DNA of 62,690 bases, taken from the IMG/VR virus record IMGVR_UViG_3300023296_000161, positions 1 through 62,690 of that record; one strand, 5' to 3'. This document shows, piece by piece, positions 45,428 through 45,487 of this stretch. The position numbers and the translations under genes were made by a program. Each line of letters opens with the position of its first letter. Position 1 is the first letter of the stretch. Origin of the DNA: a virus. Lineage: Duplodnaviria > Caudoviricetes. The notes under the pieces are model-generated. The model did not search any database. It was not told the origin of the DNA and saw only the letters and a program-made list of their open reading frames with translations.

Positions 45428-45487
45428 ACAATGTCACTGATGAGTTTGTGAAATCCAAACGAAACACTTTGTGTCTGGCAATATTGT
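45428..45487 (+). ncRNA. Type I hammerhead ribozyme
   Basis: TGTCA-CTGATGA-GTTTG(tgaaatc)CAAAC-GAA-ACAC(ttt)GTGT-C-TGGCA; GUC cleavage triplet 45473-45475. Confidence 0.85.

Follow-up and report, generated by a model that had tools for sequence, protein, structure and literature searches.

What does a self-cleaving RNA do for the phage gene that it precedes? The question is raised by positions 45428-45487 of IMG/VR record IMGVR_UViG_3300023296_000161, from an uncultured marine T4-like myophage, where a predicted hammerhead ribozyme lies between a promoter and a small winged-helix gene. The record, estimated to be 40% complete, was analysed at its full length of 62,690 bases, which we call the window. 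Thousands of hammerheads occur in bacteria and phages, and two previous reports still describe their purpose as undefined; the role most commonly suggested is to process polycistronic mRNAs (PMC6765202, PMC3088659). Our analysis indicates that the 60 nucleotides very probably constitute an active type I hammerhead ribozyme. The fuller explanation, that a genuine hammerhead is kept by selection within the first 60 nucleotides of the winged-helix mRNA, is on balance probable when all of its parts are judged together.

The component parts of the element can be read directly from the sequence:

45428-45487, + strand: type I hammerhead ribozyme, with all invariant core nucleotides, three helices and a GUC triplet
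45428-45436, + strand: 5′ strand of stem I, ACAAUGUCA
45437-45443, + strand: core strand CUGAUGA (C3 to A9), without change in 11 family variants
45444-45460, + strand: stem II, GUUUG (45444-45448) with CAAAC (45456-45460), closed by G10.1-C11.1 and carrying the 7-nt loop UGAAAUC (45449-45455)
45461-45463, + strand: core GAA (G12, A13 and A14)
45464-45474, + strand: stem III, ACAC (45464-45467) with GUGU (45471-45474), including the A15.1-U16.1 pair (A45464-U45474), and the loop UUU (45468-45470)
45475, + strand: C17, the non-G cleavage nucleotide, with the predicted cut between 45475 and 45476
45476-45487, + strand: 3′ strand of stem I, UGGCA (45476-45480), bulge AUA (45481-45483) and UUGU (45484-45487), which would form the 5′-hydroxyl end of the mRNA once cut

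Stems II and III are closed by loops, while stem I is open and holds both ends of the element, which is the topology of type I. The core strand follows the hammerhead consensus C3 U4 G5 A6 N7 G8 A9 and is accompanied by GAA, the A15.1-U16.1 pair and a nucleotide other than G at position 17. A type I descriptor of our own, requiring stems of at least 4, 4 and 3 bp and applied to both strands of the window, has a single match, which is this site, with stems of 5, 5 and 4 bp. Only 1 of 200 dinucleotide shuffles yielded at least one match, compared with 18 of 200 when the stems were relaxed to 3, 3 and 2 bp.

The initial annotation of this stretch had described the complete core, the stems and the GUC triplet at these positions, and re-reading the sequence bears this out. 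Its identification of a type I hammerhead is likewise supported by the full core, by conservation in relatives, by one compensatory change and by a model, R1, built from other phages (see below), and its predicted cleavage site, C45475, by the reading of core and triplet and by conservation within the family. Stem I needed correction: both of the segments it had paired are present, but they share U45432, so the distal helix comprises 4 bp (ACAA/UUGU) beyond the 3-nt bulge. Within stem I, G45478 takes part in a G-U pair that is A-U in most relatives. Together with the conserved 7-nt loop II, the bulge at 45481-45483 could provide a candidate tertiary contact for fast cleavage.

Placement of the element depends on three further features:

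45393-45421, + strand: sigma-70-type promoter, with -35 box TTGACA (45393-45398), a 17-nt spacer and a TG-extended -10 box TATACT (45416-45421), matching 11 of 12 consensus positions
45496-45512, + strand: hairpin UCAUCUU-GAA-AGGAUGA, seen in predicted folds, which sequesters the Shine-Dalgarno (SD) sequence and stays in the 5′ untranslated region after the predicted cut
45509-45787, + strand: small winged-helix gene, an open reading frame (ORF) of 92 aa from ATG 45509, with its likely start at ATG 45521

This promoter is the top-scoring promoter-like site within 44200-46200. Its -10 box ends 6 nt before stem I, which places the ribozyme between promoter and ribosome-binding site (RBS), and transcription would begin at about A45427 or A45428, 6-7 nt past the box and at the first base of stem I. 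The initial annotation had also put the ribozyme at the start of this promoter's transcript, and we concur, the start position being predicted rather than mapped. An in-frame ATG at 45509, 33 nt past the cut, falls within the SD hairpin. We take ATG 45521 as the true start, since AAGGAUGA at 45505-45512 then serves as a normally spaced SD sequence and since this ATG is conserved in relatives; the earlier distance of 45 nt from cut to ATG is correct for this codon. The encoded protein matches Pfam HTH_39 at 21.8 bits, against a cut-off of 21.3, and belongs to phrog_4973, whose function is unknown; a search for a solved structure of the protein found none.

Relatives were collected by an IMG/VR search with the winged-helix protein, from which the best 80 of 170 confirmed loci were retained. 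In 43 of these 80 the same promoter is followed, at an unchanged distance, by the same hammerhead, and pattern scans recovered the hammerhead from 51 IMG/VR contigs and 63 metagenome contigs, many of which are common to both collections. Variation was then measured in the 57 distinct haplotypes found over 100 loci, each of which has the promoter, the hammerhead and a start codon:

Hammerhead: 7 of 60 columns variable, mean minor-allele fraction 0.019
Promoter spacer: 14 of 17 columns variable, mean minor-allele fraction 0.20
Linker after the ribozyme: 4 of 6 columns variable, mean minor-allele fraction 0.257
Third codon positions of the winged-helix gene: 81 of 84 columns variable, mean minor-allele fraction 0.231
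Second codon positions of the winged-helix gene: 36 of 85 columns variable, mean minor-allele fraction 0.041

The hammerhead is more conserved than the second codon positions of the adjacent gene, and all 13 core positions are invariant. In the promoter, none of the 6 columns of the -35 box and one of the 6 of the -10 box vary. Among 11 IMG/VR sequence variants compared over 18 pairs, all 198 cells hold standard pairs. The middle pair of stem II, U-A in seven variants and C-G in four, is the sole two-sided change in the family. Two stem I pairs are altered on one side only, to wobble pairs, and stem III does not change among the 11 variants; in the metagenome set, its loop UUU becomes UUAG in L224 and L238. 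This comparison shows strong purifying selection on the hammerhead, while covariation within so narrow a family is thin and stem III is backed by invariance alone.

To look beyond the family, we derived the pattern CUGAUGAG-N4-UGAAAU-N5-CGAAA from stem II and loop II of the window and scanned IMG/VR with it. At least 117 IMG/VR stretches match, and the stem II geometry is found in more than 100 other phage contigs. The matches listed include 76 from outside the family, of which 58 are full type I hammerheads (38 of them distinct) and 18 fail a strict parser. Six hammerheads from unrelated phage contigs were used to build a covariance model, R1, which aligns its positions 1-54 with 45432-45480 of the window without any non-standard pair, at 49.7 bits and a rough E-value of 3e-16, a score that is partly circular in that the six were fished with the window's pattern and about 19 matching bases were guaranteed. 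Agreement in stem I, stem III and the cleavage triplet was not guaranteed by that pattern. R1 has 157 matches in 83 sources, and in the class alignment fitted to it 96.5% of cells are paired (61% after shuffling) and two-sided changes occur in 15 of 16 pairs. By these measures the window's ribozyme belongs to a large, well-supported class of phage hammerheads. The next R1 match in the window, at 4443-4479 (11.2 bits, E 0.19), was rejected as a second copy, since it is without stems II and III; the record searched is the window itself, at its estimated 40% completeness.

Class members share with the window a 5-bp stem II with loop UGAAAUN, a 5-bp proximal stem I and a closed stem III. However, they usually follow an upstream stop codon and often form arrays, whereas in the window's family the ribozyme follows a promoter and stem I is bulged and extended. 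Arrays of six or seven class hammerheads, a few hundred bases apart, occur in L137, L140 and L201, with seven each in L137 and L140. Across 102 contexts outside the family, the median distance is 3 nt from the end of the upstream same-strand ORF to the ribozyme and 45.5 nt from the ribozyme to the start of the next ORF; 13 lie inside a predicted ORF. Class members outside the family are punctuation between cistrons. A promoter-like site ending 4-16 nt before stem I was found in 1 of 91 non-family contexts, in none of 91 shifted controls and in all 12 family rows, where the -10 box stands 10-11 nt ahead of the start of the R1 model every time. The lone non-family case, L144:7956-8010 on the − strand, follows TTGATG, an 18-nt spacer and TATAAT, a promoter-like site that ends 7 nt before stem I, and is possibly a second hammerhead at the first base of a transcript.

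The junction in front of the winged-helix gene is polymorphic in nature. We classed it in the 80 loci and the window, except for one locus that was too short. Promoter and hammerhead are combined in 43 loci and the window, 17 loci have the promoter without a hammerhead, and 19 have no promoter; the last group includes L066-L074, where a tRNA follows the gene for transfer-messenger RNA (tmRNA) and the winged-helix gene comes directly after. This tRNA lies about 70-150 nt upstream of the gene and was read by eye as tRNA-Ala with anticodon TGC. Seven of the leaders with promoter and without hammerhead were folded, and five of them form, besides the SD hairpin described above, an 8-9-bp hairpin flush with +1; L028 has its first hairpin from +5 onward, and the leader of the distant L078 is unrelated. 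The two hammerhead-less alleles that look most recent, L010 and L059, retain CUGAUGA and differ from the hammerhead allele by gaps of 38 and 6 nt, which suggests that a hammerhead was lost there rather than gained. In L026, promoter and leader are duplicated (L026:541-660 and L026:1383-1500), one copy on either side of an inserted gene that encodes about 200 aa. Stem III, the cleavage site and the stem I 3′ strand have been lost from the upstream hammerhead, while the downstream one, next to the winged-helix gene, is intact.

Besides the circularity of the R1 score, several observations weigh against an active ribozyme kept by selection. A scan at Rfam gathering thresholds, with RF00008, RF00163, RF02275, RF02276, RF02277 and RF03152 as the hammerhead families considered, gave no hammerhead match in the window, which is the outcome of a check proposed in the initial annotation. 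A permissive scan of 801 bases gave at best 27.8 bits for Hammerhead_3, against a gathering score of 48.5 and with a permuted alignment, and 16.2 bits for RAGATH-1-hammerhead (RF03152), against 56.3. The class as a whole resembles the latter family, although the link is weak, with L157, a textbook-looking phage type I hammerhead, reaching 20 bits. Used as a control, L157 likewise stays below gathering (23.1 against 52 bits), so the Rfam miss says little about the window. Free folding gives no signal relative to shuffles (z = 0.06), and the hammerhead fold, at -6.1 kcal/mol, lies 1.4 kcal/mol above the minimum of -7.5 at 37 °C. A weak folding preference is usual for short AU-rich hammerheads, and the energy model ignores tertiary contacts. 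Stem III, with 4 bp and a 3-nt loop, is invariant and hence without covariation support, the one compensatory pair within the family is possibly a single event, and three metagenome contigs (L213, L220 and L236) share a variant that disrupts the distal stem I helix at its innermost pair. Furthermore, the 17 loci with promoter alone show that the ribozyme is dispensable. On the protein tree its state requires 12 changes, at least seven of them forced by well-supported branches, and identical proteins occur with differing states (L029 versus L036, and L032 versus L033 and L034). Thus, the leader has often been exchanged or lost and the ribozyme is not essential.

Some of these points would also fit a dead or neutral relic, conserved for another reason, be it a 5′-terminal hairpin, a protein or DNA binding site, or a recent shared ancestry. 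In favour of this are the weak, AU-rich stems and the short stem III, a patchy distribution over the gene tree, dispensability, the small amount of covariation within the family and the absence of an Rfam match at gathering score. However, the 13 core positions are invariant while adjacent non-coding DNA and synonymous sites are saturated, and the variation seen in the hammerhead is a compensatory pair, is compatible with wobble pairing, or falls in a loop or bulge. The displaced copy in L026, deleted internally, shows what decay looks like. Moreover, a hairpin by itself needs no core, as the hammerhead-less alleles demonstrate. We therefore regard a relic as unlikely. A DNA operator for the winged-helix protein was rejected by reasoning, for it would not need the full hammerhead core.

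If the hammerhead is active, events at the locus may be pictured as follows. Transcription from the promoter at 45393-45421 would start at about A45428, stems II and III would fold first, and emergence of the 3′ strand of stem I would trigger self-cutting after C45475. A 48-nt leader with a 5′-triphosphate and a 2′,3′-cyclic phosphate would be discarded, leaving an mRNA with a 5′-hydroxyl and a fixed 45-nt leader bearing the SD hairpin. Read-through RNA from the upstream tmRNA gene would be cut at the same site, and the gene would thus always receive an identical 5′ end.

Bacterial mRNA decay can depend on the 5′ end, through RppH and RNase E, and 5′-terminal stem-loops such as that of the ompA leader stabilise bacterial and T4 mRNAs against this route. 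The flush +1 hairpins, present in five of the six folded family leaders without a hammerhead, can be likened to stem-loops of the ompA type and occupy the position of stem I, which suggests that hammerhead and hairpin alleles may both act on the state of the 5′ end. Because relatives fill the same junction with a flush 5′ hairpin or a tRNA, we infer that the property under selection is the state of the mRNA 5′ end, meaning protection from decay and independence from upstream read-through. The cut end would escape 5′-end-dependent decay in the manner of RiboJ. That protection or insulation of the 5′ end is the purpose of the ribozyme is a tentative suggestion, drawn by analogy. The initial annotation had proposed that a 5′-hydroxyl end could stabilise the mRNA and that a small RNA of about 48 nt is released, consequences that are plausible.

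Another proposal is that the ribozyme mainly finishes the tmRNA, by cutting read-through and freeing the coding piece from the downstream mRNA. The coding piece ends 52 nt upstream of the hammerhead, the scan of 44200-46200 found no terminator-like site between the two, a tRNA, another processing signal, occupies the same junction in L066-L074, and most other class members directly follow the end of an upstream gene, at a median of 3 nt. Yet a strong, conserved promoter separates tmRNA from ribozyme, and the module of promoter, hammerhead and gene is kept away from the tmRNA both in L026, where a gene of about 800 nt is inserted, and in L063, where about 180 nt intervene. There are also relatives with the same tmRNA and no hammerhead, and a cut here would leave a tail of about 100 nt on the tmRNA. 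We consider this role improbable. The initial annotation had suggested that the ribozyme may trim tmRNA read-through; such trimming would happen automatically, but the persistence of the module without an adjacent tmRNA, and the tmRNA-bearing relatives without a ribozyme, make it an unlikely reason for the ribozyme to be kept.

A translational switch can also be read from the leader, where UCAUC at 45496-45500 can pair either with GAUGA at 45508-45512, which covers the SD sequence and AUG, or with the GAUGA of the hammerhead core, so that folding and cleavage would be linked to the access of ribosomes. With 2 of 18 columns variable over 45494-45511, the SD hairpin is conserved, and it is predicted in leaders with and without a hammerhead; its variants keep or strengthen pairing (U to C opposite G) or lengthen the loop by one base. 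However, only 5 bp are possible with the core, and in the predicted fold of the whole leader the SD hairpin persists with the hammerhead formed or unformed. Equal conservation in alleles without a hammerhead makes the hairpin independent of the ribozyme, and no evident ligand- or protein-binding element is present. Such a switch seems as improbable as a role in finishing the tmRNA, while the hairpin by itself is probably a translational operator. Finally, the idea that the released 48-nt 5′ fragment, with its 5′-triphosphate and 2′,3′-cyclic phosphate, is a functional small RNA and the mRNA end a by-product is very doubtful: the fragment is predicted to be equimolar with the mRNA and is highly conserved, but the ribozyme's own needs fully explain that conservation, and hammerhead-less relatives are without the fragment altogether.

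RNA from the environment covers this locus. Five seawater metatranscriptome runs, in the form of assembled contigs with word shares of 0.05-0.07, were available, and four of them (X1-X4) were compared. Contigs in X1-X4 cover the winged-helix gene, and those in X1-X3 carry a hammerhead-less allele, in which 45443 is joined to 45494 or 45495 with TATTGT(T) between. Assembled contigs cannot show RNA ends, and the lack of any end or joint at 45475/45476, a further point that does not help the case for cleavage, is uninformative either way. Contig starts at 45497 in three runs are probably assembly breaks where the two alleles diverge. Letters abutting 45490 (in X3) and 45495 (in X2) are presumably Illumina adapter tail, and possibly reflect abundant fragment ends, 15-20 nt past the predicted cut.

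The surrounding region runs in the order PhoH, a T4-type lysozyme-like ORF, a PD-(D/E)XK nuclease, a two-piece tmRNA, the winged-helix gene, gp33, gp59 and tRNA-Thr. The lysozyme label is a reading of the ORF, with no database match behind it, and gp33 is the late-transcription coactivator. After tRNA-Thr come ORFs whose counterparts in Methylophilales phage Melnitz are annotated as a flavin-dependent thymidylate synthase and a protein with a single-stranded DNA-binding domain. Melnitz is the nearest named phage and shares the gene order and the tmRNA, although the winged-helix gene is absent from it. Among cultured relatives, blastn returned the Melnitz tmRNA only and tblastn only a 44%-identical gene in Stenotrophomonas phage DLP_6; neither search found a cultured phage carrying the hammerhead element. 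The tmRNA is laid out as follows:

45193-45376, + strand: coding piece of the two-piece (permuted) tmRNA, with tag ANDNVSYEDFALAA and the end ...CCACU (RF04321, 49.9 and 53.9 bits)
about 44551-44618: acceptor piece, ending CCUCCACCA, with its own promoter (TTGACA 44521-44526, TATAAA 44544-44549)
44657/44681-45247: HNH endonuclease gene in the intervening segment (phrog_3322, E 9e-20), and extending 55 nt into the coding piece, past its start at 45193

The coding piece ends 17 nt before the -35 box, its end being placed through the alpha_tmRNA alignment of L017. The tmRNA gene region, 44295-45376, is rearranged with respect to relatives such as L001 and L017. A 44-aa ORF that lies in the intervening segment of relatives is here upstream, at 44379-44513, behind a second copy of the promoter (44295-44323), and the Rfam tmRNA match at 45125-45319 aligns a spurious acceptor part. 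Elsewhere in the window, tRNA-Arg(TCT) and tRNA-Met(CAT) stand in tandem at 31711-31872, and tRNA-Thr(TGT), at 47133-47206, is flanked by gp59 and by the ORF (47223-47897) with the counterpart annotated as thymidylate synthase in Melnitz.

With regard to enzymes that repair 5′-hydroxyl RNA ends, no RtcB and no RNA_ligase family match was found in this 40%-complete record. A P-loop kinase of 260 aa (57832-58614) matches Zeta_toxin at 44.1 bits, AAA_33 at 30.4 bits and, weakly, the PHROG polynucleotide kinase family phrog_505 (E 2.8e-6). It was set aside as a candidate repair enzyme, as it is mainly Zeta_toxin/AAA_33-like and the match is too weak in an incomplete record.

With the type I hammerheads of bacteria and phages (clan CL00010; RF00163, RF00008 and RF02275), the window's element has in common the core, the three-helix junction, the GUC triplet and an intergenic location in a phage. 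It differs from known examples in scoring below Rfam gathering, in its AU-rich stems, in an unusually short stem III (4 bp with a triloop) and in lying at the start of a promoter's transcript, not between two genes. The hammerhead type is known, and its promoter-proximal context is rare. An earlier survey describes hammerheads in intergenic regions of phages PaP3 and Bcep176 and, in haloviruses HF1 and HF2, one that precedes a start codon by 13 nt (PMC3088659). Literature searches on hammerheads with tmRNA, phages and pelagiphages, and on type I hammerheads in phage intergenic regions, brought up no title or abstract opening that describes this element, and the supplementary tables of PMC3088659 may list related ones.

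The closest parallel in placement is RiboJ, a hammerhead set directly after a promoter and before the RBS, which trims the promoter-derived leader and leaves a 5′-hydroxyl followed by a hairpin. The window's arrangement is alike, with cleavage predicted. However, RiboJ is a synthetic element with its origin in a plant satellite RNA, and the window's hairpin sequesters the SD sequence, whereas the downstream hairpin of RiboJ, as Lou et al. reportedly conceived it in 2012, is meant to expose the RBS. Between promoter and RBS in E. coli, RiboJ raised transcript abundance about 2-fold and protein abundance 2- to 10-fold (PMC6206723). It is possible, rather than probable, that the phage locus is a natural counterpart of RiboJ, in which an early-type promoter is permanently coupled to a hammerhead, so that the mRNA exchanges its 5′-triphosphate for a 5′-hydroxyl, and in which the hammerhead is interchangeable with a flush hairpin or a host-cut tRNA.

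The setting is a clean one, for the hammerhead is predicted to begin at the first nucleotide of the transcript, serves one small gene and is under strong selection. Alleles with a hammerhead, a 5′ hairpin, a tRNA or nothing at this junction coexist in nature, making a comparison on the same gene feasible that could show whether the value of the ribozyme lies in the chemistry of the 5′ end. If the proposed equivalence is true, the question of how phages and bacteria benefit from their hammerheads would receive a direct and testable answer from this three-way natural polymorphism.

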